Positions 36,640 through 62,500 of a stretch of DNA of 64,000 nt are shown here, in pieces. The DNA lies in NCBI GenBank assembly GCA_008632985.1, contig QPGO01000157.1, positions 1 through 64,000 on the forward strand. The letters are read 5' to 3'. This DNA comes from Psammoneis japonica (taxonomy: Eukaryota). Position numbers and translations under genes: made by a program. Each line of letters begins with the position of its first letter. Position 1 is the first letter of the stretch. The notes beneath the pieces were generated by a model. It was not told the origin of the DNA. It saw only the letters and a program-made list of their open reading frames with translations, and made no database searches.

Positions 36640-36830
36640 GCCCCGTTGTCAAGATGGCCAAGCCCAGCACTTGAGAGGTGACATCATGCACATGTGGTCT
36701 TTGTGCATGAGCCAAGATCCACTTTTTGTGAAGCTGTTTCTTGATGGAAACCACTCTTGAATCCACCCCACTTGCAACCACAAGCAACTTGCTCATCTTG
36801 AGAATCGCTCTGACTGATTGCAGCTTGAAA
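36640..36830 (-). pseudogene. Captured, hypermutated fragment resembling UTP4/cirhin WD40 protein
   Basis: VVASGVDSRVVSI...WILAHAQRPHVHDV resembles the UTP4 SGVD...W...RxHTHDV motif. Confidence 0.5.
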
Positions 36831-36987
36831 TGAGTGTTCCTGTTGGCATGGATCTTCCCAAGCACTCCACCATCGTGCAAAATGCAGGCAACCATTTCAT
36901 GTTGTTGTCACCTGAAAGAAGACTCACAACACCGAATGGCTCCAACGGCAATGCTGCCGCCTCTCTAGCTAGACGGCGATGCTGTGG

Positions 36988-38117: not shown

Positions 38118-38374
38118 NGTCTTACTTGCGCCGCAGGCGCAGGGGCGGGCGCGAGGGACCGACAGGAGTGCGTTTCGCCTGCAATTTTTTTCGCGGCATC
38201 ATATCGCGGTCTGCAGAGGTATGACAGTGAGTACTCTTAGCTCTTAGTCGCACCCTACTCTAGAGAGTGTCGTCAATGGCTTTCATTTCGTAACAACTTC
38301 AAAAGGCTAGAGTACAGATTGGCCAAATCATTCGTCCGCTATTCTCTTTTTTTCCCTGTCGGGCCGTCAACAAC

Positions 38375-40180
38375 ATGAGTCAAGAGCGTGCTCCGAATGC
38401 TGCGCAGAACGAGGATGATGAACATCTCTTTCAAGCGGTGGAATGTCTCAGTGAAGAATCGATGGATTCTGTGTCGCCCTTGCTATGCCCATCAGGTACA
38501 TCTCGACCGTTGAAACATCTCCACAAGTCAACCATCATCTCAGCAGTATCCGTTACGTCGCATAAGGTCCAGATCCCTTGGTAACATACTGTCAACACTA
38601 TCGCCTTCACTGCTCTTTCCAAGTAATCACGAACTTGGACAATCGGACCGCTCCGCATTTCTCTCTGCAGACTCTGACGTTGCCGACGATGCTGAATGCA
38701 GTGGAGGAGTCTGCGAAACTGCTTGGGGAATAAAAGGACAATCATGACACCATAACGACCGATCCTGTGCCTTTTTCTCAACAGAGACAGAGCGATGCTG
38801 ACGAAAACAATGTTTTCAAGCGAAAAGAGCCGAATCCAATTTTGGTTTCCATACTCTACGGACTCATCAACACCAGCATTGTACTACCGTATGTACCCGT
38901 CCTCATGTCGTTTGGGAGCATTATTTATTGCGATCCCGTCTTTGCTCCGTACATGTCAAGTTTGATCAAGCTCACAATAGTATCGGGTATGGTTCATCAA
39001 GTTTGTTTTTCGTCTCTGTCGACTTTGCCTTTTGCCGTGGAACAAGTGCAGGATGCGGGTCTTATCTTTTTGTCACAAATGGCTCGGACCATGGCTCAGT
39101 ACTGTAAGAATAATATTTACGCTGACGACGAAATGCTGGCAACCATCACGGTTGGGTTGGGGCTTTCTACTGCTTTTGTTGGGATGCGGTCTAATTCTGA
39201 TTGGCAAAGCACAACTCGCGCAGTGGGTTCAAGCCTTACCTACACCCGTGGTGGGAGGATACCTCGCATTTATTGGCTGGTTCTGCGGACTATCTGCTTT
39301 CAAGCTCATGTGCATTGATATCGACGACACGAATGCTGATTCTCTTTTTGAGTCACAGTGGATGTTTTGGTTGCCGGGTGTTGCTGGGGGGTTGTTGATT
39401 TACGTGCTTATCAGATCACTGCGACGTATGGCGGTGTTGCCTAGATGCATCCTCTTTATTCTGATGTTGTTCTATGCCAGTCTTTGGATAACAAACACAT
39501 CCATAGCTCAAGCTACAGAACTGGGATGGATCACGCATTTGTGGTATTATACTTGGGACTATGTCCGGTTGAACAAGGTTTGTTTGGTCAGCCTTGCCAC
39601 AACAAGCACTTACGTTGTGCAGCATGATTTTTGTCGTTGCTATTTCTAGTAGCTTGGATGTCGCGGCGATTGAATTGGAACTCAAGAACCAGCCGCTAGA
39701 CTACAATCGGGAACTGCAAATGGTGGGAACGAGTAATTTGGTTTCAGGACTGGCGGCCGGGTATACTGGAAGCTACATTCTTAGTCAAAGTGTCTTTTCT
39801 CTTCGAGCGGGAATCACTTCAAGATTAGCTGGTTTCGTTATCGCCGGCTGCGAATTGATTGTCTTTGTTCTCCCCTTCTCGGTTTTGTCGTTTGTTCCCA
39901 ACTTCTTTTTTGGAAGTCTCTTGATCATGATTTGCATTGATCTAATGTACGAATGGCTATGGGACGTTCGATCAAAATTCACGAGTGCGAGCTACATTAC
40001 ATGCCTTGGTACCTTTGGTTTGATCCAGGTGTTGGGGGTCGAGTATGGTATCATTGCCGGAGCTTGTCTGTACTTGCTGGCATTCAAGTTTGGATTCAAC
40101 ATGAGTGATCGTAGCACCGTTGACAACGACGTCAGAAATGCTACGACATATCATCAACTTGCGTCGAAGCTAGATTCCTA
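38375..40180 (+). pseudogene. SulP/SLC26 anion (sulfate/bicarbonate) transporter, disrupted
   Basis: QVQDAGLIFLS, LPTPVVGGYLAFIG, SSSLDVAAIE, DYNRELQMVGTSNLVSG...GYTGSYI. Frameshifts at ~39180 and ~39590, stops in the 5' part, no STAS domain seen. Confidence 0.88.
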
Positions 40181-40417
40181 TCCAATCAGGGCACGGCAAG
40201 ACGCAGGAAAAATAGATGATGTGGCTTGCGAGAAATCCCAGGGAACCCCGTGCGAAGTACCAAGGATAAGTTGTTGGATACCAAGGATGTGCAGTGGGCA
40301 CTCAGCGCTTCTCCAAATCGCTTCCCTCAGGCAGCGAGCTACTCTGATATACGGCGCTATTACTCGTGGCGGCGTCTCTAAAGCGAAGTCAAATAGTACC
40401 AGGTAGGGCGTCGTCTT

Positions 40418-40598
40418 GAACTGCTTTATCGTCCCTTGAGATTGACGCATGAGGGCGTCCTGAGACATCTCTAGATAGTCCATGCGCATGCTCTCTGGAA
40501 AGACACAAACAGCAGAAAACAACTACGAGTACAAGCATTCCATACCATGTAGGCGATTGCAACTGCAAACGATTCAAGAACATTAGCTACAAGCATCC
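40418..40598. repeat. Unmutated inverted homolog of 2856-3054
   Basis: Direct alignment; retains TA and CG sites lost in the other copy. Confidence 0.9.
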
Positions 40599-41642
40599 AC
40601 TCAAGGACGTCCCCTCTCGAAGCGACTTTTGAAGAAGAGCGTCACCATTGGCGTTTTTTGCGCTTCTGGTTGATAACACAAAAGATGCTACCGCCGTCAG
40701 TCCAAAAACAAAAAAAGACCTTTCAATAAAATAGGTTTGCACCGTACCGTACTGTCCACGGCCAATGGTGCTTTTTCAGTCCCAAAAGGGATTCATCGAG
40801 TCCGACAAGATCGAACGGCAAGCATTGCGATGGACGATACTTACAAGACAAAGTCGATGCTCGAAGGACATCGTACCGATGCTTGAAGAACTACACACTG
40901 AGTTAACAAAGCCTACGTTGCGATTGTAGAAGGTATGAGCTTTACGCATGTGCATTTGAACGTGCGGCTTCAAAACTCTCCGTACGCCTACCGAATTTGC
41001 TAACACAACCATACTATTTTTTTTTGTTTCTTTGAAACCCCACAGAAATCTTTCCGACTAGTAAAGGTATTAAAATCATCAAGTACTCCATTGCAGAAAC
41101 AAGTCTGGATCCGTCCACGGTGCAAGCACCACACTGACTGTCCACGGCCAATCTTGCTTTTTCAGTCCCAAGAAGGAATCATTGAATCAGGCATTGAGCT
41201 TTCCATCGCCAAAAAGCTGAATCCAAAATGTTGAATATGGAGGTACGTGCTGTGCGTTATATGTGCCGAACTGCAGGCGCCACGAAGATTCTGTTGGATA
41301 GAATATCGCTGCTCACCCGAAACTTACCGATCGATACGATCACAAAAGCAACTGCACCATGCTCATTCATACACACGGATCCAGAGTATGGTCAGAAAAG
41401 CCGCTGCCAGACTCAATTCTTCCATTCGGGAACTTGTAAAGCAAGCAAAGGCAAGTGTGAGTGTTACTACCTGCAGTCCTTTCCGAACCCAGTCTTCTTC
41501 CCGCCTCGCCACTTCCCCGATTCTTTTTCTCTCTTCTACAAATGCTCCACTCCTTGTCTCTAACTCCAGCTCCTTTCTCGCTATCTCTAATTCCCGCTCT
41601 TCTCTCTTCCCGTGTTTTTCTTCTTTCCCGCATGCACTCGAA

Positions 41643-43428
41643 CTACCCAACGGCGTCATGTCGCCGGTTCAAGATTCTAGCGGACCTTCGAACAGTTCTC
41701 CCATCGGCAGAGAGGACATACACGCTTCCCAAAGCTGCTCTAAGCCGAACAGACCGCCTTGGAATGATTGAATCCGTAATGAGGGATGTAGGTGCTTGAA
41801 CGTGTTGACCTTCTGTCTGTTCCGTCTCCACCAACAACTCGTCTCCACCATGCTGGTCTGGAAGGTTCTCATTGCCTTCGTCGGCAGGGATCTCTTGTGC
41901 CGAAGGTACCACCACTGCTGACGCCGTCTCGTGGATAGGATCGTCGCTGTCAGAAGCACGGTGATCCGTAATGAGGGATTCCCGCACTTCGACACGCCCT
42001 TCTTCTTCTCGATCTTCTCCCAAGACTTCAGGCAAGCCATTGTGTTGATTTGGAACGGAAGCCTCATCGTCGGACGGAACCTCGCACGCTGAAGGCACCG
42101 CCATTGCTGATGCCATATTGTGGAAGGGACCATCCTTGTCCGAAGCAGGCAAGTGAGACCCTTCCAATTGTTGTTCACCAATCAACACTTCGTGCAAGTC
42201 ATTGTGATGATCTGGACCAAACGCATCGAAATCGGAAGGGTCATCTTGGACGTGATCATCATCTAAAAGAATCGCATCGAGAGGATTCTCTGCCGCAACA
42301 GATGCAATGGAAGATGTCTCGTGTTGACTCGATGTATCAGGTGCAAGCTGTGATTGTAGAGAGTAAAGTAGAAGTAGAAATAGGTTTTAGTCAATTGTCA
42401 ACGAAAAGGAGCGATAATGCAACGATAAAATGACTTACACTCTGACTGCTCTCCTCAGGACTAGCGCTGAGTCTACCGGTAATACCACCGCATACGTCAT
42501 CTTGATCACGTGTGATAATGCGTCGTTTCCGAGAACCCAATGCTCTGCGCTGATACTTCCTTTTGTCGCCGGAGAAGGTGTCTATGAAACGTTCATTCGA
42601 TGATTCTTGAACAGACAGCTTCTCCATAACGTACAATGAATGGTCAGGCTTGGAGTGCTCATCCATACGGCGTTTCCTCGGGGCACGGATAGTCTTTGGG
42701 TGGAGGTCTCGACGCGTGCGAGGAAAGCAAGTGTCGTTCACACATGAACAAGGCTTTGGACGTCCCCAGCCGAATGCTAGATGGTTGTTTCCATTGTCAC
42801 TACTCTCCTTGTGAATGGAACCAACAAGAACGCTGTCACCAACTTGCTTGTAGGAAGTCCGACGACGTTTGCGTGAACCAAGTTCCGTACTGCATGTGTG
42901 CCGAAACCACCTCTTGTGACCACAACTCGGATCGACAAACAAGCATTCGCTCGAAGACTGGCCAGCAATCTGTTGCACAACACTTGCAAAGTGATCGTGC
43001 TGGGAGCTCTCATTATAACATCGGAGTAGCGATGACTCGTCTGAACCCAAGTATATCGGTGACCAATCTGAAAGCTCCGGCTGAACTTCCAGACGAGATG
43101 GTTTCGAAATGCCTTGTCGTGATTCCTGCTCGGATGTTGTTGAGGATGCATTGATGCCCGTCGATTCGTCCAGCAAGTACACGTTGGAGGTATCGTGTTT
43201 GCTTGGAATGACGCTCAACTGAACCGATGACTGCCATTGGAGACGTTTCGAAGGACGTCCGCTTGTCGAAAGCTTCATGTCGCGGGAAACCTCGTCTTCG
43301 GTCAACAGCCTGCTGCGTTTGTCGCCGACGCTCATGCGAGCCCGCCCCATGCTCTCCATTGGAACGGTACGGGAAGAAAGGTTGTATCTCATTGTTTGTT
43401 TGGACATTGTGGATGTGCTTGAAAGCAT
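41643..43428 (-). CDS. Intact two-exon orphan protein (~564 aa); exons 43428-42439 and 42347-41643
   Basis: 990 bp + 705 bp open frames joined in phase by a 91 bp GTAAGT...CACAG intron conserved in copy 1. Ends RRSVRLRAALGSVYVLSADGRTVRRSARILNRR. Confidence 0.75.
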
Positions 43429-44700
43429 CGTGAGATTGTGTGGTTTTTGCGTGAAGAAGAGATCATCATCTTGTTTGAAACACGAGTGGGTTTGATTTTT
43501 TGTGACATCAGGTTCATCGTAGAAATATACGAGAATATCATACCACAGAACTGTTTCCAAAATGTCCGATCGCCAAAAACAACATCAAGTTTAAAAAAAT
43601 ATACTGGTATACGTGACTTAAGGATACATTTTGAGAAACAGCTAGCCGGCCGCGGCCGGCCAGGAGAAATTTGGGAGGTCTGTCAGTGGTGCGGACGAGG
43701 AAAACGAAAAATTAAAATTCCACGAAGAACGCAGAATTTGCGTAGCCACCATGGCGAATTTGCGTCGCGTCCACCGTCGTTGCCACCGTTTTTCACAAGG
43801 TGAGTCACTCGTGATGTTGTCGTCATTTATCTTTAGCACCATTTACGTGTTGGATCGATTTTGACAAGTGCCACTCCACGCAAGAAAATCGGTTTCGACT
43901 CCTTCGGTGTGTGAGTCTGTGAGTCTGCTGCTGTTGTCGTCGTTCCGGTATGTTTCGTCGAGTTTGTTATTATTTCCCTCCTCTCATCCCTTTACCTATG
44001 CCTCATTCGTTTCATAATAAATATAGATAAAAGGCGCTGATGTGTGGGGCACCTTTGGAGTGTTTGAGACGAGCTCTGGACGTCGCGGCTCGTGGTTGGT
44101 GTGTTTCCAAAAGACGTTAGCGGTCCGGCACTTATTCTGTTTCTTTCGGGATACTGATATTGTTCAACGTGCAACATTTGCAAACCACCAAGATCCAAGC
44201 ATTGCAACTCATGCAATGTCTGTGTTTATAATTTGATCAGTACGTATATCTTATCGTTGGGGTCTGGCTTTTGCAAATGATAATATCTCTATGCATTTCA
44301 CTCAGTCGTTTTGCAAAGCGAAAGATTATTTGTTACTTTGAGCGCTTCTCCTTGTGCCCACCATGCATTTCTATGTTTTTCTCTCAAACTCTTTGTAAAA
44401 TTACTGAAATAACGAATCTGATCCGTACAGGTAAGACGGATCTCTCAAAGCCTTCCAGTTGTGATGGTAGAATCCATTAGATGGAGAGTTGTCCTGGCCC
44501 GCGACGCCGAAGAAATCAGGATCTGCTGCAACGCAATCCCAGTAATCGTTGAGACCCTTTTGCGTCCACGGTATGGGCATGGGGGAAGCGGAATGATCAT
44601 GTACATGGACGGTACGTTGTCTGGATGATGTTTTCGTCAGCACATCTTGTTTCTCTAGAAACTTATTATAAGCACCGCTATCCCCAAAAGAAGCGGGGCG

Positions 44701-46274: not shown

Positions 46275-47039
46275 CTACCGTGTTGGACCTATGAGAACAC
46301 GGAAATACGTCTGATTTCCTTCGTGTAGTAATTTTTCATGGCAACATAGAATTACTTCGTACGCAAGCTTTACACAATATCTGACGACACAGGACGGGAA
46401 TACAAAATTAAAGTACCACTACACAGTTAAACCCCGGTCCTACTAATATTACTAGACGCCACGGAATACGTAGCAACAATGGAGCCGCTATCCTTTGACG
46501 TCCGATTCCGTTTTGTCACTACTACCGTATTTTAATTCATATTTCTCCGCATCCGACATTCAAAGTTATAGGGGTTGGTCCCACGGGTCTCGAGCAGATA
46601 CGAACAGAGTATTCTTGATGTTGAAAGACCAATCATGCCTGGTACACATTTTGTTTGAAAAAACGTAAGTTGCGGGGCGGGACCCACGGTTACTTGAACC
46701 TTAGTAGTTCAACAAGGACTGTCTGTCGTACATATCGTTTCAAGTCGGGTGGTCGAACCGGGTAAAGGGCATATTTCTATGTTGTGAAATGAAAACAAAA
46801 AACAGGTCAGTAAACAAGTCTCGCATGAAAAGGGAAAGGAGGCACGAAATTGACTTACATTGGGGGTGCAATCGAATGTAACGTGACACAACGAGTGCAC
46901 CCCATGGTACACGACAAAGTCGTGCAATGTTGGCGAGTCTTTGATGCGCATCAAAGCTGCATTGTACCGTAAAATGGAATCGAGAGATGCCCCCGTGCAT
47001 GCTCGATTTCCAAGGGTACAAAAGAAGCAGTTAATGAAT

Positions 47040-48635
47040 CTAGCGGCGACTCATGATCCTTGCGGATCTACGCACGACACGCCCGGTATTCGACGAAAGA
47101 AAGACACTGCCAGTGGCTTGACGGAGCCTAGGCGAGCGTCTCAATGGGACAGTGTGGGCTTTCTTTTCCTTGTTTCTCACAAGTACAGCATCAGGAACAA
47201 CATCCTCCTCTGTCACTGGATTGTTGTCGGCAGCCATATCCTGAATGTCGAATGTATCGTCAGGCTCCTCCGCTACAACTCCAAGAACGACTTCCTCGTC
47301 GTCTTGTGTAGCCATCGCATGATCGTCCGTGGCGTCAGCAACAGCAGGTTCCTCAACGTCAGCACCGGGAACGCCCACCCCCGCATCGACTGGAGCATTG
47401 CCAATAGCCATAGCAGGTTCCTCAGCATCAGCAACAGGAACGCCGACCTCCGCATCGACTGGAGCATCGTCAATAGCCATAGCAGGTTCCTCAGCATCAG
47501 CAACAGGAACGCCCACCTCTGCATCGACTGGAGCATCGTCAATAGCCACAGCAGGTTCCTCAACGTCAGCACCGGGAACGCCCACCTCCGCATCGACTGC
47601 AGCGTCGTCAACAGCCACAGCAGGCTCGTTCAAGGCATCCCAAGGCTCTTCAGCAGCAGCAGCAGCAGCAGGAACTACTTCTGCCGCCGCAATAGGATTG
47701 TTTTCCATAGCATCAGCCGGTTCAATCGCCACTGCAGTCCGTACCCAGCCCCGCCAGTGATCATATATTGGGTGAGTTTGATATTCACGAATATACAGGT
47801 TTTGTTTCGAGTCAAACTCAAGCAGTGCCGCAGTCAACTGCTGATCATTCAGGACGGGAATAATACGAGTGTAACGTGGACGTCGAAGAACAGGTTTAGC
47901 AACCACGCCGGTATGGGTTGGGGGAAGGTCGCCGACAAAGACATTCCTGACCAGTTCTTCGTCCGGCAGCCACTTTAAATGCGGCTGACGATACTGCCGA
48001 GCCAGCTTGTCTTGCTCCTTGTCGATTCGTCTCAATGCAAAGTCCAACCTCTGATCCAATAGCACTGGAATCTTGGTTGTATACTTTGGATATCGAAGAA
48101 CTTTTGGAGCAGCCACGCCGGTTCGGACGGGACGATCGTGAACGACACCGTACAGGTTCTCCAGTCCTGCAGGTCTCCATCTGACACGCCCGCGACCAAA
48201 GCATTTGCGTTTCCAGAAGAGTACCCAAAGGATCACAAATTGAAAAGCAATGTAGACGAAGTAGAAGAACCAATACACGGTCCATACAACCACAGCAACC
48301 GCGAGAGCAGCCGCAACAGCATCGCACGCTCGATTCCAAAAAAGAGTCGTCAGGTCGTCAATTTCCATAATTCGGCGGTACAGAAAATAGACAACCGACT
48401 TCAACGAGGAGTATACGAACAACACAGCATATAAAGCGAGGAGAGCTGTACAGACTCCTACAATGAAGGACGCCAGTTCTTCAATCATGCAGCGGATCCC
48501 GTCCATTGCAACGCACGAGAATATCCAAAGTTCCCAAAGAAAACCGCTGACGATTCGGCCGTGGTTCTGCTTACCGTGAAATATGCGTAGCAGGAGGTTC
48601 ATAAAGAGAATGAGTAGTGCAATATATGCAATCAT
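47040..48635 (-). CDS. 531 aa orphan: N-terminal transmembrane helices, duplicated basic motif, acidic 23-aa tandem repeats, RRSPRL/RRSARI tail
   Basis: Single long ATG-started ORF in normal-composition DNA with a coherent modular layout. Confidence 0.75.
   Translation of the reverse strand: MIAYIALLILFMNLLLRIFHGKQNHGRIVSGFLWELWIFSCVAMDGIRCMIEELASFIVGVCTALLALYAVLFVYSSLKSVVYFLYRRIMEIDDLTTLFWNRACDAVAAALAVAVVVWTVYWFFYFVYIAFQFVILWVLFWKRKCFGRGRVRWRPAGLENLYGVVHDRPVRTGVAAPKVLRYPKYTTKIPVLLDQRLDFALRRIDKEQDKLARQYRQPHLKWLPDEELVRNVFVGDLPPTHTGVVAKPVLRRPRYTRIIPVLNDQQLTAALLEFDSKQNLYIREYQTHPIYDHWRGWVRTAVAIEPADAMENNPIAAAEVVPAAAAAAEEPWDALNEPAVAVDDAAVDAEVGVPGADVEEPAVAIDDAPVDAEVGVPVADAEEPAMAIDDAPVDAEVGVPVADAEEPAMAIGNAPVDAGVGVPGADVEEPAVADATDDHAMATQDDEEVVLGVVAEEPDDTFDIQDMAADNNPVTEEDVVPDAVLVRNKEKKAHTVPLRRSPRLRQATGSVFLSSNTGRVVRRSARIMSRR
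47340..47630 (-). repeat. 69 bp coding tandem repeat x4 (EEPAVAIDDAPVDAEVGVPVADA)
   Basis: cagcaggttcctca...gcatcgactggagcat units visible directly. Confidence 0.95.
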
Positions 48636-51600
48636 AATGGGGGTAGTGGTATCAATAAAGATAGATTGGTAATAACAGTGTTTGATTCAATGCAAGCAAA
48701 ACTTGAAATTGTGTGGTGACTTGTTGCTTCTGGCCCATTCGTGAATGCGTAGAAACTGTACCGGAGAAGCCCGTAGGAAATCCGACGGAGTCCGCCGCTC
48801 ACGATTTTCGATTTCGCGGGAGTTGGCAGGTTTGCATGTCGGGTTACTCGTACCGGTACGACTGCCGGCGGGGCTCTAGCTGGCTGTGGAAGAGGTGAAA
48901 GCAATCAGACACGGAGACTGATGTTGGATGTATCCATGATGAATGCATCAACTTTGGAGCTGACATCTACAATGACACACCCAGTGTCACTTCGACAGAG
49001 CTCATTCTGCTGCAGGAGGAGTGCTGCACATGAGACCTTCGAACACACTTTGCAAAGGTCGCCAGTCAAAAAGTGCTGCAGTCTGCAGATTTTCGATGAC
49101 ATGTGTCCCAACTCCCACGTGTGAAGTCCACCTGGCATTCTTCTGTTGATTCTTCTTCCTCTTCTTTTGCCACACTTTGCCTCTGTTGTGCCCCAAATTT
49201 CATTTCTTCTTTCCCTTCCTTCCAGTTGCATCCACAATTGCACTTCATCTCTCCCTTTTGCAAATCGGACCAAACAGAGCCATGAGTGGATTTTCTCTCC
49301 TGTTCCTGCCTTTTGGGTTGTCAACGGATGACCCATCATTCTTGCTGTTCTGGGCCACTGCTCCCTTCTTCCGGCTGGAGCCACATCCTGCCATGATGCA
49401 CTCAGCTTCGTCATCGTCATTCAGGAGACATGCATCAATGATGATGCCAAGCAAGGAGCAGTCCAAGACTGCTGATGCCTTTTCAAAATGTTGCATTTGC
49501 TGCATGAGCCATGAGCAAGCAGTGTTGCTAGAGTGTTGTGCAAATTCGTCTGCAGCATCAAGAGCAACGGCAGAGGCAACTGGCCTCCAGGCCTGCGCTC
49601 CGTGAACTCTGATTTTTTGTGTTCTGCGGCACATCCACAGAACAGTGTTCCACAATGGTGACACCACCTTCACCTCAAGTTGTGCCAAGTGAGCCTTGGA
49701 GCAAANTCTTTGCCTTTCGATCCATTGCTGATCACAGTCAAGAATCACAACAGAGCCCTCCAACGTCATCTTCTGCAATGTTCCCAATCACAAAAATTCA
49801 TTTGATGCACAACAGAATCCCCAACAGAAGCACGACACTGCCAACAGCAAATGCAATGAACAATTCTCTTTTGAGCTCAATCCCATTGATCTTGTCCCTT
49901 TTAATTCTTTTCTTCTGAAGGGTGAAGCCGCAAACCCAATCACTGTGCAAACCAAAGCACAGCCCCAATGAATCAATCCAAAGACTGCATGCAATGCAGC
50001 AGAAGCAGCAGCATTTGATGTGACACAGAAGCTAAAAGTGCCACAAGCAAGACCTGCAAAACTTTGTTGCTCATGATTTGATGAATCATGGCACCCAACC
50101 GTGTTTGCAAAGTTGAAGCCATGACTGCATGCACCATCCAAAACAGTGTGCTGCCACATGAAACACCCCAGGGGATTGGGGAAAGCTCTGCCAACTGATG
50201 TTGCATTGAAAAAGACAGCCATGGCAAAAATGCCACAGACAGCCACAATTTTGCACCTTGGAGCAAATTTTCATTCTTCCATCATTTCAGTCAACAGTGT
50301 GGCCTCTCTTGCATCTTGACTGTTGTTCATTTGCTTGTCATTCTTCTGTCCTCCCAGTTTGGCTGCAGAACCTTCAAATGCGTGCATTGCCTGACAAGCC
50401 AATGTGACAGCCACATGGTCTGTCCATTGATCCCCAGATGCTTCTGCCAAAACATTCCCATCATTTTTTTTGAGTTGAGCAATGCACTTGCCTTTGGCAC
50501 TGTAATTTTTTGCCTTTTTTAAGAGTTCAACACAACACAGAAGCTCAAAGTGCCACAAGCAAGACCAGCAAAACTTTGTTGCTTGTGATTTGATGAAGCA
50601 TGGTGTCCGACAGTGTTCCTGCCAGCATCACAATGACAGTGCCCATGTCAATCATGGGTCAATCTGCCAGTGGGTGCTTCACTTGACTGTCCAAAAGAGT
50701 TGAGGCCACAGCTGCTCCAAGAACAGTGACAGTGGTGAGAGGACTCACGATGCTGGCTGGTGCAGTCACAATCATTGGAAAAATGAGCAGGATCATCCTC
50801 CTGCTAAAAAAAATGCAGCCATTGCCCATTGCTGCAATCACAACCACAAGCAGCCAATCAACCAGAGAGCCAGCAGCAGGCAGACAGAGGATGACGTGAT
50901 GACACAATTTTTTGTGAGGACATCTGCCCTTCATCATGTGTCACGTGTGCCCACGTCATTTGTGAAGCAGCATGACTTCAAAGACATGGGTGCCCTGGCT
51001 TGGGAGGGCCAACAGCTTCAGGCTTGTTGCATTTGACAGTGTGTCACAGGTGCGAATGTAAAAGCAGTTTGTGTCATGCATGCAGTGCAGCTCTGGCAGA
51101 GAGGAGGCAAGGGGTCATTGACACTTTGGAGGTGGCCCAACAAATTGCACCTGCCATTTGTCAAACAGATGGACAAATGTCCAAACTGGCAGCTCCCACC
51201 TCAGCTTCTTTCATCCTTGTTGGTCACATTTGATGCAGAGAATCAGTGGCACCAAATCTGTTTGTTCATTTCAGAGAGAGAGAGACCCCAAGCAAACACC
51301 TGACAGAGCTCCCATCAGATGATCCACAATGTTGGAGAATGACAAAGGTGGCACAGTTCTTTGTGGTGCAATGAACTTTTTTTGCTTTTTGTGTGTTTGA
51401 CAGAACAGCTGTGCACAGACACAAACCAACTTGACTGATTGTCTCTGAGGGACAGCAAGGCACACTGAGCTGATGTGGTGCCAAGGATTTACAAGGCAAA
51501 CTTGTAAATCCTGGTGGCACACAGCGCTGGTGGCAATGCTGTGTGCAGCATCAAATCAGCACCACGCATGTCATCTCCACATTGACTTGCAGCAGATTTG

Positions 51601-52949
51601 TTGAATGGCAGGGTCATCAAACCCTGCATGACACAGAGTGGCACAGCTCAACTTCAGCAAAACAGGGAGCAACAGGTGCCAGCCCAGATGACACATGAGA
51701 GGACACAAAGGCTTGTCATTGTTGCAAATCATTGTTGCAAACAAAATTTTGCAGGCTGGAATCACCCTGCAGTGATGAAATTCTGCACATCAGAGTTGAA
51801 CCTGCACGCTTGAATCATTTGACATTTCCCAGGGCAAAAGTTTCAGCCCAAGTCTGGAGAATGTCCAAAACTGGTGTGATGAGAAGCAAATCTCATGTGG
51901 GAAAATGCAGTCTGGTGCCAAGTTGACATGCACTCAGCAAGCAGAATTTCATGCAAGTTGTGTGGCAACAGTTGCTGATCTTGAGAAGCACAAAAGATGC
52001 AGGCTTGCAATTTGGCAAAGTGCAGTTGGCAAGTTGTGAGCCAACATTGTTGGGTTGTCAGAATGGGATTTCCATCAATGACACCGCAGTGCTCAGATTT
52101 GAGACCATGCATCTCTGCCAGCATGCTTGCCAGAGAGGAGGATGTTGTGACATTTGGTTTTGTCATTCAAAAAATCCTCAATCATTTCCAGTCACTCAAA
52201 GAAGGGCTTGAAATGTTCTTGGTCTTGGCCTCACAACCAAAACAGGCAAGAAGATGTGCTGGAAAGCTGTGCCAGCATGTGATGATGGGGGGCACATGGC
52301 AAGCTGCCTGTCCATTTCCTGACAACATGGAAAGGACAAACAACATTTTGCATTGCCTTGTCACACAACCAGCTGTCACTTGGGTGTGTTTGATGCTTTG
52401 TGGCACATTTTGCACTCAGAGTTAAGCAGGTTTTGACAGGTTCTTAGTGATTGCCTTCATTGCATGTGGAGTGCCTGCTGTCACTTTGGCCATTTGGGAG
52501 GTTCCTTGAAGCTCTGTGACATGAGCCACACTTGCAAATGCAATGCTTGAGACTCTTGACAAGCACTCCTCTTGCATGCAAGCCTGCTTGTCTGCCACAA
52601 TTTTGGCTCTTGCTGACAAAAGCAGGAAGGTGAAAGCCAGAGTTTGGCAAGTCATGACCTGCTTGCCTGCTCCCCCACTAAAGAGTCATCTGTGACATGT
52701 TTCTGTGCTGAACCAGAGTGATGCTTGTCAACAATTGAAGTTCCTAAATGTCTGCCCATTGTTTCTGTCAATCTTCATCACACATGGACATTGGCTGTTC
52801 TTCTTGATGGCTGTCAAGTTGCAAATGATTCAATTGTTTTCACTTGTTTTGAGTTGCCAGTTTTGCTTTTTGTGTGTGCATCATCAAACTTGTTAAGTTT
52901 GCATGCATTTCATCCCTTCTCTTTCTGCCAACCCAAAATCTGCCAATGA

Positions 52950-55900
52950 CAATGGCGCACCCCTGTCACAATCCACTCTGTCCCAGTCAGATGTCTGACA
53001 ACAATGACCAGCATGCTCTCCACCGACATTTCCAAAGACATCCCCAGTGCTCTTTTTTCTTTTGTTGTGGCCTCAACAATGTGTCTTCCTCTCCCAACCA
53101 CTTTTGTGTGACAACGGTGCCTCCATCTCTTTTGATGCATCAGCGCCTCTCAACCGTTCCCTTGATTCAAGTGCCAAATGATTCTTGTCCCTGTCTCTTG
53201 GTTGGGGTGGTGATCCATCCTGCCTTTTCCGAATGGCAGTGATCAAGAGTTTCAATTGTCCACCCATGTTGATCCCTTCTCCAATGAACTGCCATTGGAT
53301 TTTTCCTCCAACAACAATGTTGTTGATTCTCATCATGCGCCACTGCCAGAAGAACTCAGTGTTGGGTCTCTTGCCCCAGACCCTTCTGATGGTGGCATCT
53401 TCTGTGATGATGTCTTTTTCCTGGAGAAGGAGTTTGACGTTCTCTCAGCACAACACTCTGTGTCATCCTCTTCCCTCCCCAATGATGACAAGGATGATGA
53501 TGGATTGCACTGCTTTGACGCACTTAGATGGAAGAAGCTCAGCTGTTGCAACCTCCATGCATTTGTGTGACCAACAGCAGCAGCACCAAGAAGCTTCATT
53601 CAGTGGAGGAAGAGCTGGTTGTGATGATGAAGAAGCATTGTCTCTCCCATGGTTTGTGCAAGAAGCATTTTCTCTCCCCTGGTTTGTACAAGGCTTTTTG
53701 TTTTTGGGCCAAACATGCCAAGGAGAGTGGCTGTGAGTGCAAGTCTCTCTTGAAAGCTGAGCATTTTGGTTTTGGTGGCCCAGAGCACATTTGCTCCACA
53801 GTGCATGTGGACCCCGAGATTTCCCCCCAATGCATGTGCACTGATTTTCCTTTCTGCACTGTGTGAGAAGGGTTTTCTGCAATCCCCAGGTTGTCCAGTC
53901 TTGTCAGTGGTTGTGCAATGAGAAGTGCTGCCCCAAACTAAACAAGCACATTTGTGACTCTCTTGACACTGGAAACTGGTGGAAGCAAGTGGAGCATGAT
54001 CTCTCAAATCTTCCCTTGATCAACTTGGCAATGACTGGATCACACTTTGTTTGCCCAGTTGTGCTGTTTGACAACTCCACCCTCCTTTGTGAAAACATGG
54101 GTCATTTGCAGTCACAACCCATTCTTGTGACATTGGGCAATTTTAATGATGAGTGTCATTGCAGCCACTCCCTTTGGTCAACACCAGGAATGGTGCCGCC
54201 ACACCCAAAGACAAGCATTGAGTGCACTGCCAACTTTCAGTCAAAGCTCAGACAGGCGACATGCATCAAGTTCCACCACAGCACTTTGCACAAGATGTTC
54301 ACAGAGTTGCTTCAACTGTCAAAGCAAAAGACTGGTTTCCCAATTGTGGTGCCATCTCTCAGCTTTGTTCATCTCCACTTTTGATTTGTGCACGACAATC
54401 AGCCATGCAAAAGGTCACGACAACATGGCTTGTCACCACAACCCCATTCAAGCAACATCTCCTGGATGAACAGGGACTGTGACACACCACAGCATTTTGG
54501 TGACAATCCCTTGCTGCTTGGCTGCATTTTGGCGGAACAAGAGAACATTGAGGAGACAGTGGAGGCTGCCATGACAGCCATGGAGGAGGAAAGGCATCAT
54601 GGCAAGGCAACTGCTGCTTGTGAACAGTGCAAGGACATTTCTCAGCACTTCACTCATCCCATGTTTTGGGACATCTCTCATGGTGGAGGAAAGCACAGCA
54701 TTTTTGTCATGCTCCCCTGGAACCTGTTGCATGCCTTGCACTTTGGTCTTTGCAAGCATCTGCCTTGTGCCTTCTTCAACCTGCATCAAGTCCCAGAAAA
54801 CATGTTGTCATGGTGTTGCAAATGTCATGTTGCTGGGAATGCACAATGGACAACTGATCATCCATCACATTCAAGGAGCTCCCTGAGCTGTTTGACAAAG
54901 CTGAGTTTGAGAGATGCTTCAGAGTTGCCACACATGCACCCAGGAGGCAAAGCGATTGGAAGGTGCCAAGAGCTCCATTCAAGAATGGAGTCACCAACCA
55001 GACTCATCTTTCTGGCCAAGAGCATCCAGGTTTGTTGCTTGCAACACTTGTGCAATGAAAGGCATGCTTTCGAAGGAAGATGAAAGCCTCAAGCCACTGG
55101 AGAGTCAACTTTCCCACCTGATGTTCATGTCTTTGGGATTGGACGCAGCACTGTCCATGTCCTCCAACAAGGAAAGCTTCCTTCTCACTTGGCTTCAGAA
55201 ATGCATCCTCAAGCATCTCCAATTGTTTTGATTTGCAGTCAGCCCATTCAGAGAGTGCCACTCTTGTTCCAGACTTTGCACACCCAAGTTCCATGTCCTT
55301 CTTCACTTCCTTTTTTGTGTTTGTCAGCGGGGCAATGCCAACACTTTTTTGGTGGATTCTGTGAAGCTCTCCTCAAGATGCTTTTTTGAAGCAACTCACT
55401 AAAAACACAAGTCATTGGCAAGATGGGCTCAACCTGGATGTGATGAATTGCCACTGTGAGGACCTTGTGGTTGGGAAATGATCAGAGAAGCATTTGCTGG
55501 AGGTGGGTTGGCTGCATGCACAAGAGGAAGAGGCTTGTCCTGACTCTCCACCATCAAATTGTGCATGCACTGACCCTGCAAGTGGATTCAAACCATGTGA
55601 ATCTGTCTTGGTGACTGCTTGGGTTACAAGCATGGATCACAACAATGCCACATGGTCTGTAAAATGTGGCAACAAACAGCTGGAGACACTGTCATGTCCT
55701 TTTGTTCCTGACCATTGCAGCAAGGAGTGGGTCACCTCCTTGCTGGATCATGCGGAACATTGCAAAGGTTTCCCAGTTGACATTGTGAATTTTCATTTGT
55801 TTTGGATGCAATGCTCTGGGCCCTGTCAATGACAAACATGACATTCTAAGATGCCACCCTCACTTTCACTCCTGCCCATGGGAACAAAGGAGTTGGCACA
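52950..55900 (+). mobile_element. Plavaka-type transposase remnant
   Basis: LDTGNWW...FVCPVVLFDNST...GHLQSQPILVTLGNF...W...GMVP, ISHAKGHD, NRDCD and SIFVMLPWNLLH follow the Plavaka motif order. Confidence 0.7.
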
Positions 55901-57439
55901 GCTGGTCCATGGTGAACTGGGACAAGAACAAAATGAGCCATTTCTGTTGCAACTCATGTGTTGTTGGGCAACCTTGGAAAATAAAACGAAGGAGTGCAAA
56001 TCCACAATTTGTGCAATCCAATCACTTTGGAGCTTCGTGCCATCCAAAGATTTGCTGCTGACCTTTTTCTTCAGCACTGAAACAGAGTCAGAAATCAGAG
56101 TTGTTGAAATTTCTGACACATTGTCTGTTGTCTGCTGCCTTTGTTCTTCCATTGATTGGGTTGCCACAAGACCCCTTTCCTGACAACCCAGAGGATGTCA
56201 CTTGTTTTGTCGTTGGACAAAAGGTGTTGATTGAAGTCCTGGAGATGGGAGTGTGCAGGCACGAGTGTGAAAATTCCAATCTTAACAAGAACACATCAAC
56301 ATGATAAAATCAAACTTGTTGAATGCATGCATGTGACATTGATGACCAAATGATTCATTGAGGTTGTTTCAAATCATTTGAACCATCACATTGCAACAAA
56401 AAGATTGAATTTTAAAACAAAATTGTTGCTGAAAAAGAGATGCTGGTGGGAATCAACTGACAGCAAGGCTTGCATTTTGGTCAAAAACATGAATTGTCAC
56501 TCCCCCCACAAGACACAAAAATGCAATCTCAAGTCACATGCAATGCATGAGAGCAGTGGTGACAGGCAGCGAAGTTGTGAATGGGATGGAACAAAATGCA
56601 GGACACAAGGTGAGAAAGAGGAAACAAGTGGCGAATGCATGGAGATGGGCCCACAAGCAAATGACTGACACTTGTGCACATCTTTGTGCACAGATGTCCA
56701 AACACATGTCCTGAGCTGCAACGCAAGATGGGCAATGGGGAAGGGCACAAAGGTGAGCAGAAGCAGTGCATGAAACAAAATTGTAAGAAACACAAAACAT
56801 GCACAAAAATTGATCATTGAGACAAAGTTTTTTCTCCAGTTTTGCGGGCGATGCTTTGGCCAGCCAAACAGAAGGAATGCAAGATTGACCATTGGAGGAC
56901 AATGTCATTGCCTGGTGTGGATGGTTGTGGAGAGAGCAAGAGTGGTTGCAAGGGAGGCCACAAGGGCTGAAAACATCACACCCATGGTTGGGGACTGTGA
57001 AAGACAACAGGAACTGGTGGAACACAGGAAAAAAAGAACAGGAAAAAGGGAGCATTTTGCAGCATGCAGTGTGGAAACAACAAAACAGAACAACTGCACA
57101 TCAGACAACAAGCAGCATGGAGGACAATTGAACATCATGGTTGTCAGAAGTGGACAATGTCAGAATGTTGTTGCAAACACATGGTTGTTGAGATGGAAAC
57201 AGATGCAAGTGACGCATTTCATTGAGTGTCATTTCCTGCTTGGAAGGTTTGAAATGAGCAGACACAAAGAATTGTCAAGGATGTGTGCACAACAAGACTG
57301 ATTTGCATCAGCTGTTAAATCCCACTTGGAATGTTCAAACAATTGTCAAGCTCCCTTTGTTGACAATCATTTGGAACTTGTTAAGAAAACAGAACCCTGA
57401 ACAAGAGAATGTGAGTTCTGAACAAGAGCCGCGACATTT

Positions 57440-58930
57440 TCCAAATGTGAGCACCCCACATTCCTTTGGCGACCTGCCTGTTCACTCTCTCACACAGCAT
57501 GGAAAGGAAGAACAACATCTTGCACAGGCTGCAGCAGCAATGGCAAAACATGAGCAGCGCTGAGAAACAAGCAACAAAAAAGAATGGGCTGTCACAAACT
57601 CGTCATCTTTGCATGCAAGAAACAGCTTCTGTGATGCCAGCACCTGGTGTTTTCTGCAAGGTCGCTGAAGCTGGAGCTTGTCCTGCAACACAAGCACAAG
57701 AAGCTTGTCAGCTGCACATGCTGGTGGGTCTTAAAAGCCCAAAGAGCACCCACCTTGCTTTGGTGCTCTGCTCTGCTTGTTCATTCCCTGATCATGACAT
57801 GAAAAAAAAGAACAACATGTTGCACAGGCTGCAACAGCAATGGCAAAAAGCAAAAACATGAGCAGCACTGGGAAACAACAGTCCAGTGGAAGCTGTGCTG
57901 GCCATCATGTGGGTGTTGTGCAGGGTGGCTGAAATGACAAGCACCCCTCTTGCATGCAGGCTTGCTTGCCTCCCACAGTTTTTGATTCTGCTGACAGAAG
58001 CAAGCAGGTTGTCAAATGTGGAGCTGATGGGTTGGGGCCTCCTTGCCTGTGAATTGTTTTTTGCCTCTGTTCATCATGAAAAAACCAAAAGCTGATGCTG
58101 CAAAAAACACAAGCAGCTGAGCAGCTGTGCAGCCAAGCATGTGCTTGCCTTTTCCACAGATGTCTGTCAGGGTGCAGCACATGGTGAGCTGCTTGCTTGT
58201 TTCCTGACAACAAGGACAAACAACAACATCTTGCTGCACCTTGTCACATCTTTGGCAGTTACCTGGTTTCCAAGACTTGTTCATTCCCTGACAACAAGGG
58301 CAGAAAGAACAACATCTTGCACAGGCTGCAACACCAGCTGCAACAGCAAACACAAAAAGGAGTGGGGAACAAGCAATGAAAAAGAATGGACAGTCAGAAG
58401 CTCAACACCTCAGCCCACCACAAGCAGCTTTTGGCTGAAGCTTGAGCTCCTGCAGCTCAAGCCATGCAAGAAACTGAGCAGCTGCACACTTGCTCATCTG
58501 CTCAGCTTCCTTTGTTTGTCTTGCAGGAGCTCCAGCTTTGGCCACTCTGCACAAAGTGCCACATGCTGGCCAGAGCAAAAAAGCTGCTTGTGGTGAGTTC
58601 TTGAGGTGTTCCAGCAGCCCTCCTCTTGGGTGTCATGAGGCCTTCTTGAAGCCAGCACAGAGAAGCTGTTTGTGAGTTGAGGTGGCTGTTGAGCTTGTGA
58701 CAGCACACTCTTTTTCATTGCTTGTTCCCCAGTGCTGCTCATGTTTGCTGCCACCAATGCTGCTGCCAGCACAGCCTGCAGCACCAGATGTCACTCTTCC
58801 TTGGTTTGTGGACCAAGAAGCACCCACCTTCCTTTGGCTGTCTGCTTGTTCACTTCCTGACAAAGCAGAGTGAAAGAACAGCATCTTGCACACAGAAGCA
58901 AGCAACCGCAGCAGCAACAGCAGCAGCAAG
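57440..58930. repeat. Cluster of decayed ~150 bp repeats in direct and inverted orientation; related pieces at ~52290-52630
   Basis: aagaacaacatcttgcacaggctgca...aaacaagcaa..aaaaagaatgg at ~57508, 57808 and 58305; inverted at ~58690-58790; partial at ~58845. Confidence 0.75.
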
Positions 58931-58944
58931 AGATTGGTGGCATT

Positions 58945-59415
58945 GAGTCCTTCCATTCCTTTGGCAGATGATGAAAGCACCACAAAGCTGGTTTCATTTT
59001 GATCCAACAGACCAAGAACAGCACCACACTTGTGTTGGCTCTTAAGAATGTCAAACAGGCTACAGCCCAAATGGATCTTCCCCTTGTCTTCCTTGGGCTT
59101 TGGCAAACATGCTGTCTCATGCTGTCAGGAGTGTTGTCACTTGTTGCATCCATGGAAACAACAGTGCTGCTTGCGAACATGGCTGCATTTGTCAACAACA
59201 ACACTTTCTCTGCCATTGACTTGTCAGACTCAGAATCTGCCTTTTGCTGTGTGTTTCGGCAGCAGGACTTGCAATGCACTGAGCATCAAGAACAATCTTG
59301 CAGCTTCATTGTCATCAGAATCACTGTGGCAAATCATGCTGTTCCTGTGCAAGGTCTCTCTTGAGAGTTGGTGTCCCCCCCTGCCCCTTGACCATCAATG
59401 ATGTCAACAACCACA
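58945..59415 (-). pseudogene. Hypermutated duplicate of the 5' end and upstream region of the TBC gene (32841-33330)
   Basis: Colinear same-orientation alignment, e.g. gatccaacagaccaagaacag vs gatccaacagaccgagaacag, and shared tctctcttgagag. Confidence 0.92.
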
Positions 59416-59599
59416 GGCAACAGAATGCTTTTCTTTTTTGCCAAAAACACATCTTTTCAGTGCACCACAGTTCAAGTTCTGTGTGAGGTGATGGCATGGG
59501 CATTGAATCATGTGACCAAAATTGTTTTGTGTCACTTGAAGATGATTGGAGGGAGAGTGCAGAATCTGTGAGCAAAACACACTGCAATTGCATTGACTG

Positions 59600-62500
59600 A
59601 TGAGTGAAAGCCATGGCATGATGTTGGGCAAAGGTGTGAGAACACTCAGTGTGATGGCCCTGCACAGGAACCTTGACACATGTTGGCTCACATGGGAAGC
59701 CTTGACCAAGTGTTGGAAGCGAGAACATTGTGGCTGCCACTGACACTTTTTTGGAACCCTGTTTTGAAAATCTTTCTGCAGCTGACCAACACATTTTTTG
59801 TGGCTTGTTTTGGCACAGAGACAGAGGCTTGGTTGGAGCCTTTCATTGCTCACATGAAAAGAATCAAGGGCAGGGAGTTTTAACCTGGGAAACTGTGGTG
59901 GCCTCCCCAAGCTCAACAAGAACAAAAAAATCGCTTCCCCAAGGCTGTCACACTTCTGGAGCAGCTCGACATCTCCAAGAAGGCATTTGACTTGGTGCTC
60001 ACTAAGAATTTGAAATTGTTGCTTGAACAAGCTTCTTGCAAGATTCCCAATGCTCAGACTTGGTGATTGTTCTGGTGCGTTCTTCATCACCATGCTGGAA
60101 CTCAGGGATGAGAACAATTTCACCCCAACTTCATCAAATTGTGCACTTGCAATCTTGTCGTTGCTTGCAACAAGGATCAAATGGGTTTCCCCTCCTCTCC
60201 TGCAGCTGGCATGGTAACACAGTTGCTTGCGACAGTGTGCACTGAGAAGGATTTTCTGCCATTTGTAGAACTGCAGGCACTTGCCCATCCAGTTCTGCAA
60301 TCATTGTCCGATAAGACAGGAAATGCAATCACGAAGTTGACCGTCCTAGACAAGGCAAATCGCAAAACTAAGAGACTTTACGCAGTGCTGCCAAAACACG
60401 AAAACCTGTAGCGAAAACAAAGACAGTCAACCAAATAATTGAATTGCTTGAAGAGAGCAGCGATGAGGACCACGCCCTTTTGAAACTGGTTGCAAGCAGT
60501 TTCGATTATGCTCTATGTAGCACACAAGATCTCGTGCTCGATGAGTCAAAGGTTATAGCGCTTAGGGACTACGTTAAGATGAGTCTAAACGGAGTGCTAC
60601 GGCTGGACAGTAGGTTTATCCAGGCTCATCTCAACATTCGAATATTCTCTACCCAGCTGAAGAAGATAATCTCACGATGTGAATCAGAAGGGAGTTTGGC
60701 GCATGGAGCAACTCTAATACCCGTGATCATAGACAAGAATGGAAACAAAAAAGCTTTAAGGGCTTTTGGTGGATAAAGCAACCGCGACGGGTTTTGGAGA
60801 AGCTCACCGAGGTATGCCACGTTGCTGGCAAATTCGAGGAATCCGAATCCTTCAGTTCCGAAACGAACGAACTCGTCGTAGTATTCGGCGGTGACAAAGG
60901 AGGTGATGCATTCACCCTTTTGATTCGAATAGCGAATCACAGAGACGGAAATAAAGGGACAAATTGCCAGCCCCAGTGCCAGTACGAGTGTGCAGCGGAA
61001 TGCGAGTTCAGCCGTCGAGCCTCTGCCTACAGTATTGTGATGTTTCCAATGACAGCATTCTTGCAAGATCTGGTGGACGATGCCCTCCACATCATCACAT
61101 TCGACGCCGGCAATGGATGCAGCTGTTGCAAATGCGCTTCCATCAAGTTTATCGCCTCTTCCAGTAACGGTGAATATTCATTGACGTTTGATAGCATTGT
61201 AGTCGACGCCTCCTTTTCAAATGCCGCTCTGCCGGCAGAGGAAGAAGAAATGAAGAACAGCCTGACACGTTGGATCTCTCAAGCTACACGACTGCTACAG
61301 GGAGCAAGATTGAGCTCATTGCCACGTTGGTAAAGTCGAGTGAAACTTCTAGTGACTGTGACGGCTTCAGACTTTCCGTCGGTGCCACCGGGCCAATTGT
61401 GTGTCGCCATGAATTCGAAGAAGGTAAACTCGTAGTTGGGGACAACGCAAACATCAATGTGACATTCCAGCAAAAAGTTGGGTTTCCGAGCAACGATACA
61501 AAGCAGTCGTTGATAGTTTCTGGCCAAGGCACTGCATCCAATCAATGTAACTGATTTGCGCGGAAGATCACATTTACTTTACAAGCCACGCCCCCAAATG
61601 GATACAAGAAATGGATGTCGAAAATAAGATAGTGACAGTCGAATACACACCAGCCCCTGTACGTGAAGGAGACTTTGCCAATCACTTGCTTTACCAAAAG
61701 TGGGCCGAACGCACCCACAACGGCAACGTACCGTCATCCAACAAAGAAGACAGACTTGAATGCGGAAGCGTTCACAAGGCTCCGCTTTTGAGAGTGCCAC
61801 CTCACAAGGAAACGATGACAGCCATGCACACACCACAAGGCGTTTTCACTCATTTTGCTGATGAAATCAGGAAGCGCATTTGTTTCATTGAAAAGAATTC
61901 AGCGTGGAGCGCTGAGGTCGAACGTGAACATGCCGCGGTAGAGAATCGCATCAGGAGAAGTGTCCAGGATGGCTCAAGGCGAGACGGAATTCAAGTCAGT
62001 ATGTTAAGTCCCAAAGGAAATTAGAAAAGGATTTTGAGAGGGAAATGGCAAGTGGGAACCAAGATGAAGAAACAATATACATAGACTCCGAGAAGAATTG
62101 CAGCATGCCATCATGCTACCGTGATGACGAACTTGGGACAGGAGCATAGGTTGCAGGAGGGACTTACTCGATTTGTCTCATCTATGCAATCATATTGCTC
62201 CAAGAATAGCATGAAGCCAAAAGGGAGAGGTGAGTTTGTATACAACAAGAGCTTTGAGGTTTTGGTGCAGGTAAGGTTTCGCGCTGAGCACAGCGGTTAC
62301 GAGTTGAGCCACGCAGACGGAATGACAGCTCAGAAAAGTGAGACACCATTTGTGAGAATGTGGCGCAGTGCTATGCATGGTATGACCAGCATCAAAACTT
62401 ACATGATGCTTTAATAGAGCTAGGTAATGGAAAGCTCTGAAAAAGTTGCGCGGCCTTTGCTTAAAGTATCAAAAAGATTCTGAAATCCCAAAAGAAACCA

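Follow-up and report, generated by a model that had tools for sequence, protein, structure and literature searches.

Analysis of 64,000 nucleotides of the diatom Psammoneis japonica (assembly GCA_008632985.1, contig QPGO01000157.1, positions 1 to 64,000 of the forward strand; this whole stretch is referred to below as the window) revealed blocks of DNA that are nearly free of the dinucleotides CG and TA and, inside one of them, a decayed copy of the 5' end of a TBC1D23-like gene in which not a single parental CG or TA has survived. Our reading, which we hold likely to be correct, is that transposon-bearing blocks of the diatom nuclear genome are subject to a local, DNA-level and strand-symmetric hypermutation that turns TpA and CpG into TpG and CpA. 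The conversion is directional, saturating and symmetric with respect to strand, is restricted to blocks with sharp edges, and spares TTAA. It has two arms, a fast one at TpA and a slower one at CpG, and it requires no second copy of the target.

Blocks depleted of CG and TA and a captured gene piece

Four such blocks, alternating with normal DNA, occupy ~28 of the 64 kb (~44% of the window). Block A (1-3050) runs off the start of the window, block B (14200-24900) has a right part (20000-24900) of intermediate character, block C (33540-36900) lies between the parent gene's promoter and a repeat copy here termed rep1, and block D (49000-60300) contains the gene copy. In strand-symmetrised counts the observed/expected ratio (O/E) of CG is 0.12 in the blocks versus 0.99 in normal DNA and that of TA is 0.05 versus 0.62, with the ratio for CA/TG at 1.85 versus 1.17. 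TG and CA are equal over the blocks as a whole, and the block edges are sharp to 100-200 nt. Base composition is the same inside (A 0.263, C 0.237) and outside (A 0.262, C 0.238): the G+C lost at CG is offset by the gain at TA, so that G+C content does not mark the blocks and GC-based scans would not reveal the conversion. The right part of block B combines a TA O/E of 0.04 with a CG O/E of 0.39 and represents an intermediate state. Locally, CA and TG are out of balance at 22001-24000 and 33001-35000 (for example, 1.88 versus 1.47 and 1.92 versus 1.26), a sign that the conversions may be biased by strand in some regions.

The parental segment of the gene copy (32841-33333, minus strand) comprises promoter-proximal DNA and codons 1 to ~121 of an intact open reading frame (ORF) of 863 amino acids (30612-33203, minus strand, ATG at 33203). 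The closest relatives of its product are diatom proteins from Fragilaria, Cylindrotheca, Seminavis and Nitzschia, with 41-50% identity; one diatom homologue is named TBC1 domain family member 23, a Pfam search of the 863 residues matched no family, and the label TBC1D23-like or rhodanese-domain protein is a putative one taken from homologue names only. The copy itself (58945-59422, minus strand) consists of ~130 nt of upstream and ~360 nt of coding sequence, has no ATG, and carries indels that break the frame, whereas residues L12, F13, S14 and F15 at the N-terminus of the parent are invariant and common to 13 diatom homologues. The parent is therefore the ancestral form, as the initial annotation of this DNA had assumed.

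Local alignment of the two segments gave 355 matches, 99 mismatches and 63 gap columns (78% identity), and the same pair was recovered by MAFFT and BLAST. None of the 34 parental CG was kept in the copy (17 became CA, 13 TG, 3 CC and 1 AG), nor was any of the 10 parental TA (5 became TG, 4 CA and 1 TC), TG or CA being the outcome at 39 of these 44 sites. The remaining 14 dinucleotides were kept at 50-85%, or 260 of 394 overall, so that change struck 44/44 CG and TA sites versus 134/394 other dinucleotides (Fisher p=1.7e-19). With 18 sites resolved to TG and 21 to CA, the outcome is strand-symmetric, and it extends to the promoter DNA upstream of the ATG. The O/E values of CG and TA, 1.17 and 0.49 in the parental segment and 0.98 and 0.48 over the entire ORF, stand at 0.08 and 0.06 in the copy.

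Near-saturated conversion had been proposed from a 33-nt excerpt (33004-33036 in the parent, 59125-59157 in the copy), whose six differences remove three TA and three CG. The excerpt is exact, and the full alignment with its context tally bears the proposal out, since the changes are far from evenly spread over contexts and CG and TA are at normal levels in the parent. The accompanying statement that nothing else had changed holds within the excerpt but fails for the copy as a whole, in which 55 of 99 mismatches fall at positions other than parental CG and TA. The mismatches divide into 74 transitions and 25 transversions, and, recoded as purines and pyrimidines, the two segments agree at 90% of 428 columns. 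Seven double swaps between CA and TG contribute 14 mismatches (BLAST alignment). Such swaps are significantly more frequent here than in a control 2.8-kb duplicate described below (7/62 versus 3/396, p=5e-5), an excess that is expected if ordinary transitions keep creating TA or CG that are then converted in turn; judged from the sequences, it points to conversion activity that remained chronic after the gene piece was captured. A purine/pyrimidine-coded search of the window for older pairs returned only the two known pairs above the reversed-sequence control; a third match in this coding, 49136-49221 versus 5638-5719, proved to be a pyrimidine tract and was rejected.

The gene copy and the right edge of block D recur, with 13 differences, in a 1704-nt Logan DNA contig (record 6) that spans 58803-60504, and the left edge of block D is reproduced by a contig (record 1) of the same public DNA run; word depth in these contigs is ~113-130, and the run may be the assembly's own sample and hence not independent. 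Summed contig depth over the gene copy is ~130, like that of single-copy flanks, and reaches 350-850 (3-6 times the flanks) at 52.7-57.3 kb, a part of block D that is probably repeated. The assembly contains a 379-nt gap at 8159-8537 and single Ns at 2011, at 38118 (exactly at the start of the repeat copy rep2, see below) and at 49706.

Partly converted repeats, flanking bases and transposon remnants

Two further pairs capture the conversion before saturation. The 477-nt repeat copy rep1 (36988-37464, plus strand) abuts block C, and its unconverted partner rep2 (38119-38585, plus strand) lies 1.1 kb beyond it, upstream of a sulfate-permease-like gene. The two differ by 11 substitutions, and in every case rep2 has TA (9) or CG (2) where rep1 has TG or CA. 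Because the TA O/E of rep2 (0.64) is at the normal level and that of rep1 (0.33) is half of it, rep1 is the changed copy. Relative to rep2, rep1 has converted 9/18 TA, 2/31 CG and none of ~369 other bases, with no event in the reverse direction (p=2e-8), and TA was converted faster than CG (p=8e-4). The pair shows an early stage of the process, which is far faster than background and reaches TA well before CG. The second partly converted copy (2856-3055, minus strand) is located at the block A edge, and its partner lies in normal DNA (40415-40599, plus strand); 7 of 9 TA and 5 of 7 CG have changed, 6 of the 7 changed TA became TG or CA, and no TA was gained.

A control is provided by an inverted duplicate that lies wholly in normal DNA, with arms of 2.8 kb at 3566-6331 (plus strand) and 40878-43634 (minus strand), 37 kb apart and 87% identical. 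It has kept 126 of 158 CG and 59 of 86 TA, its changes are symmetric, and its transversion load (109/2811 columns) resembles the gene pair's (25/454 aligned bases). Since this duplicate is unconverted, duplication alone does not bring on conversion. The one-sided, block-tied character of the conversion claimed in the initial annotation is thus confirmed by the normal CG and TA of the parent gene and by the repeat pair, in which the block-adjacent copy carries all 11 changes and the other none. Its further claim, that targeting is positional rather than homology-based, stands insofar as homology alone is no trigger, the 2.8-kb duplicate having been spared; the argument from the spared parent is by itself weak evidence, because a homology of 480 nt could be under the pairing threshold and because selection protects a coding parent.

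The inverted duplication is not collinear: the side of the long arm on which the short piece (2856-3055/40415-40599) lies differs between the two copies, which implies that the segment was rearranged after it had been duplicated. The two host-gene pieces in or beside blocks (36988-37464 and 58945-59422) are both ~480 nt long (477 and 478 nt), and both combine promoter-proximal DNA with the initial coding part of a gene, which hints at a shared capture route or a favoured fragment size.

How well TA survives varies with its flanking bases, as measured by the density of tetranucleotides in the blocks relative to normal DNA. TTAA stands at 0.74 of its normal density, followed by CTAA/TTAG (0.29), GTAA/TTAC (0.15), CTAG (0.07), ATAA/TTAT (0.05), GTAC and CTAC/GTAG (~0.01) and finally ATAT, ATAC and ATAG (0). 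This order was repeated in each of five block segments taken separately, with TTAA at 0.59-1.02, and the context class predicts conversion in rep1 (8/9 fast-class versus 1/9 slow-class sites, p=0.003). Among CG contexts in the blocks, GCGC is best kept (0.37) and TCGA least (0.06). Per-strand models based on the base 5' of T or on the base 3' of TA were also fitted; with 17 asymmetric events, neither beat the symmetric model.

Remnants of two kinds of transposon were recognized in the blocks. Block C holds a truncated Ty3/gypsy protease-reverse transcriptase remnant (34439-35746, plus strand) that corresponds to residues 51-480 of 1142-residue polyproteins, with identity to them of up to 62%, and block D holds a Plavaka (KDZ-type) transposase remnant (53845-54381, plus strand, E=2.2e-8). 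When residues were tallied at alignment columns with at least 70% agreement among 44 gypsy relatives, the remnant in block C was found to have kept 1 of 10 Tyr (Cys stands at 6 of these columns, His at 2 and Phe at 1) and 3 of 12 Arg (replaced by Gln, Trp and Cys), other residues being mostly retained. Such a selective loss is the outcome to be expected from conversion of TA and CG to TG or CA in TAY and CGN codons. Two gypsy polyproteins, each from another public assembly, have likewise lost most of the conserved Tyr: P0116 has kept 3/19 (10 Cys, 4 His) and P0130 4/17 (7 Cys, 1 His, 5 Phe), with Arg kept at 18/24 and 20/20, respectively, while three control relatives keep Tyr at 22/24, 8/11 and 18/23. 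At the level of protein sequence, P0116 and P0130 appear to bear the signature of the TA arm without that of the CG arm, a hint that the process occurs more widely, beyond this window. Across the remnant, P0116 and P0130, replacement of Tyr by Cys outnumbers replacement by His by 23 to 7, whereas TA in the gene copy was resolved evenly (5 TG, 4 CA); either the flanks or the strand could account for the excess. A scan of viral contigs with the gypsy proteins gave six pattern matches, none of which was confirmed. Just upstream of the gene copy lies a cluster of 75-150-nt repeats (57449-57601, 57744-57878, 58276-58403, 58691-58802, which is inverted, and 58819-58892) in direct and inverted order; the cluster at 57449-58892 may represent the subterminal repeats of a DNA transposon.

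Proposed mechanism and alternative explanations

In the mechanism that we propose, the gene piece at 58945-59422 would have landed in the block and shared its conversion, while the parent, at a distance of 26 kb, was spared. By analogy with the chlorarachniophyte Bigelowiella natans, the TA arm would consist of enzymatic deamination of adenine in DNA to inosine, which is read as G. The CG arm would consist of deamination of cytosine or methylcytosine, either by the same enzyme or as ordinary decay of methylated CpG, and a single ADAT2/TadA-type enzyme may lie behind the editing of both TpA and CpG; deamination at either dinucleotide would yield TG on the deaminated strand. We infer that a mark in cis, for which chromatin is a possible signal, singles out the target unit as silenced or foreign, and that pairing of homologous copies plays no part. 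The effect would be the inactivation of transposons, with Tyr codons becoming Cys or His codons and Arg codons of the CGN type becoming Gln, His, Trp, Cys or stop codons. A broader version of this proposal, in which diatoms chronically deaminate the A of TpA and the C of CpG wherever DNA lies within a foreign or transposon unit marked in cis, as part of an ancient defence common to the SAR (stramenopile, alveolate and rhizarian) lineage, shared with chlorarachniophytes and overlooked by scans based on composition or on RIP (repeat-induced point mutation) indices, is offered tentatively, as an idea that may well turn out to be wrong.

Several points weigh against a local, DNA-level hypermutation as we describe it. 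The evidence base is one 64-kb window with three informative pairs, and a metagenome scan of 17 loci (~100 kb) around homologues of the parent gene in other diatoms found no CG- and TA-free stretch, these loci being short, mostly genic contigs and too small a sample from which to infer absence elsewhere. The loss of CpG could be ordinary decay of methylated CpG, separate from the TA arm; the CpG to TpG/CpA pattern of such decay is present in the gene copy and in the blocks, although it does not explain the loss of TA. The 653-nt spacer between rep1 and rep2 (37465-38117) is wholly unconverted even though fast-class TA is abundant in it, and thus fits poorly with simple spreading from the edge of a domain; the spacer suggests that what is marked may be an inserted unit and not a domain or gradient that spreads. 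Lastly, the direction of events at asymmetric flanks is predicted by neither per-strand model better than by a coin toss, yet the ratio of Cys to His at former Tyr positions in the reverse-transcriptase copies is 23:7. Within the spacer, short GC-rich units in tandem give way to very AT-rich sequence (TA O/E of 0.99); the spacer may be a recent insertion.

Among the alternatives to adenine deamination, the one that survives best, although we consider it unlikely, is a modification of thymine at TpA (for example, to 5-hydroxymethyl- or 5-formyl-uracil, which mispair with G) that leads from T to C, the CG arm being separate decay of methylated CpG. In all data presented here, T to C on one strand is indistinguishable from A to G on the other. 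Separate arms would also accord with their different speeds, as seen in rep1 (TA 9/18 versus CG 2/31) and at 20000-24900 (O/E of 0.04 versus 0.39), and with the loss of Tyr and retention of Arg in P0116 and P0130. Hydroxymethyluracil is enriched at TpA in dinoflagellates, and in fungi an association exists between Plavaka/KDZ transposons and TET/JBP genes. On the other side, no such mutagenic pathway is documented for diatoms in the literature searched.

RIP of the fungal type, with which the Bigelowiella preprint also draws a comparison, requires a protein of the RID/DNMT4 type, takes place before meiosis, depends on duplication, operates through homology pairing, hits both copies, and changes C to T mainly at CpA, thereby creating TpA and AT-rich DNA. 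Applied to the window, it would imply that the gene piece rode on a multi-copy transposon and that the parent escaped through the shortness of the homology or through selection. As in Neurospora and other ascomycetes, the changes observed here are rich in transitions (74 versus 25 transversions in the gene pair), ruin transposons, have sharp limits, and have some effect on adjoining DNA; moreover, summed contig depth in part of block D (52.7-57.3 kb) is 3-6 times that of the flanks, and diatom DNMT4 enzymes related to fungal RID, of unknown function, are reported (PMC9998398). However, TpA is destroyed here and not created (TA O/E of 0.05), G+C is unchanged with no enrichment in AT, and A:T to G:C changes make up 9 of the 44 targeted changes in the gene pair and 9 of the 11 in rep1/rep2. 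One copy only is hit, both in the repeat pair and in the gene pair, the 2.8-kb duplicate with arms 37 kb apart is unaffected, and the stretch with the gene copy has the depth of single-copy flanks. RIP is therefore improbable as the source of the blocks.

Editing of retroelement intermediates, whether from A to I by an ADAR-like enzyme or from C to U by an APOBEC-like one, could in principle have been fixed by reverse transcription. ADAR and APOBEC editing acts on RNA or single-stranded cDNA and leaves strand-asymmetric traces. It has in common with the present case that deamination-type transitions are clustered in mobile elements, including the gypsy retroelement remnant in block C, and the prevalence of Cys over His (23 to 7) in the reverse-transcriptase copies speaks for it, as does the preference of ADAR for U before the edited A, which is mentioned in the Bigelowiella preprint discussed below (10.64898/2026.01.13.699255). 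The traces in the window are nevertheless symmetric, both in the gene copy (18 TG, 21 CA) and over the blocks, where TG equals CA; they include the Plavaka remnant, which derives from a DNA transposon, and promoter DNA upstream of an ATG; and rep1 and rep2, 1.1 kb apart, are local duplicates at the DNA level. RNA or cDNA editing accordingly has little chance of being the explanation.

Selection would require that transposons whose transcripts or DNA lack CG and TA evade a host nuclease or sensor and are retained for that reason, and joint avoidance of CpG and UpA is indeed known from RNA viruses and vertebrate mRNAs. Yet a dead, frameshifted gene piece of 480 nt and decayed remnants have no fitness of their own, and all 44 sites of the former are converted; ATAT, ATAC and ATAG are depleted to 0 copies; and the loss from rep1 of 8/9 fast-class TA with no other change calls for a rate and not for a filter, so that selection is a very poor candidate. 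The weakest explanation, that heavily modified bases in the blocks were miscalled as TG or CA in an assembly whose runs of N and single Ns mark it as unfinished, can practically be dismissed, as contigs of a public run (depth ~113-130, possibly of the same sample) reproduce the gene copy and both edges of block D, the 25 transversions and 63 gap columns that also separate the gene pair are typical of a long divergence, and the change of Tyr to Cys or His is found in proteins of other assemblies.

Known systems, implications and other features of the window

Hypermutation at TpA has already been described in Bigelowiella natans (Mettrop et al., bioRxiv 10.64898/2026.01.13.699255, April 2026). 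According to this preprint, two integrated viral regions in mutation-accumulation lines mutate at ~1000 times the rate of the rest of the genome; the changes consist almost exclusively of A>G and T>C, every one of them at TpA. Clusters elsewhere in that genome and transposon-like coding sequences are depleted of TpA and enriched in CpA and TpG. Its authors read this as a genome defence by adenine deamination in DNA, with an ADAT2-like candidate, and cite ADAT2 enzymes with deaminase activity on A as well as on C in DNA; CpG, TTAA and diatoms each have 0 mentions in its main text. The system in P. japonica resembles that in B. natans in the change of TpA to TpG or CpA on either strand (here at 9/10 TA in the gene copy and all 9 of the TA changed in rep1) and in its confinement, there, to particular integrated regions of foreign origin, of which one is silent and single-copy, and here to blocks bearing mobile elements. 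The two differ in several respects. B. natans is a chlorarachniophyte, from a different branch of SAR than the diatom. Its targets are inserts of giant-virus and virophage origin, whereas those in the window are transposon remnants and a piece of a host gene. TpA depletion in its giant-virus region is partial (rho 0.45), whereas the depletion of TA is near saturation here (O/E of 0.05). The changes reported there concern TpA only, whereas in the window a CpG arm (0/34 kept in the gene copy, O/E of 0.12 in the blocks) keeps base composition unchanged. Finally, a mutation rate was measured in B. natans, whereas the evidence presented here, a flank rule and pairs of parent and copy, comes from sequence, with rep1 (8/9 fast-class TA changed versus 0 of ~369 other bases) as an indirect indication of a high rate.

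Hypermutation of CpG, in the form TCG, has been reported from transposons of basidiomycetes (Horns et al. 2012, PMC3318451). It shares with the present case the change of CpG to TpG or CpA in transposons, and TCGA is here among the most depleted CG contexts and GCGC the least depleted; neither it nor the decay of methylated CpG accounts for the faster TA arm. Diatom transposons are CpG-methylated via DNMT5a, according to PMC9998398. Our search of the literature returned no report of diatom blocks depleted in both CG and TA, nor of RIP-like mutation in diatoms. What has been described before is thus TpA hypermutation as such, and what we did not find in print is its diatom setting, the CpG arm, the saturation and the flank rule.

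If the process is general, a defence by TpA-directed DNA editing, known so far from one chlorarachniophyte preprint of 2026, would extend to diatoms, which are major marine primary producers, and the blocks would display the end state of its long action, DNA with almost no TA or CG at normal G+C content. Pairs of parent and copy would then serve as natural before-and-after experiments, and a candidate enzyme could be tested against the rules that they yield, namely that TTAA is spared while ATAT, ATAC, ATAG and GTAC are converted fastest, that TA is converted long before CG, and that the action is one-sided and in cis. Annotation of diatom genomes would also be affected, with transposons hidden from homology searches and GC-based masking evaded; since converted DNA lacks TAA and TAG stops as well as Tyr codons, it gives rise to long false ORFs.

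The remaining features of the window are minor. An ORF of 298 codons that adjoins the gene copy (59407-60300) had no Pfam match and no homologue among 551 candidates. A further sequencing run, X2, joins position 44239 to 44306 near a helicase-like gene, skipping 66 nt with GT..AG ends; the run probably contains spliced RNA and the skipped stretch is probably a 66-nt intron. Its cover over block D is almost nil and was not counted as evidence. Normal DNA harbors two tandem repeats, one at 26161-26468 (27 nt, 9 copies) and one at 47337-47681 (69 nt, 4 copies), the latter of which sits inside the overlapping long ORFs 46887-47975 (plus strand) and 47043-48686 (minus strand).

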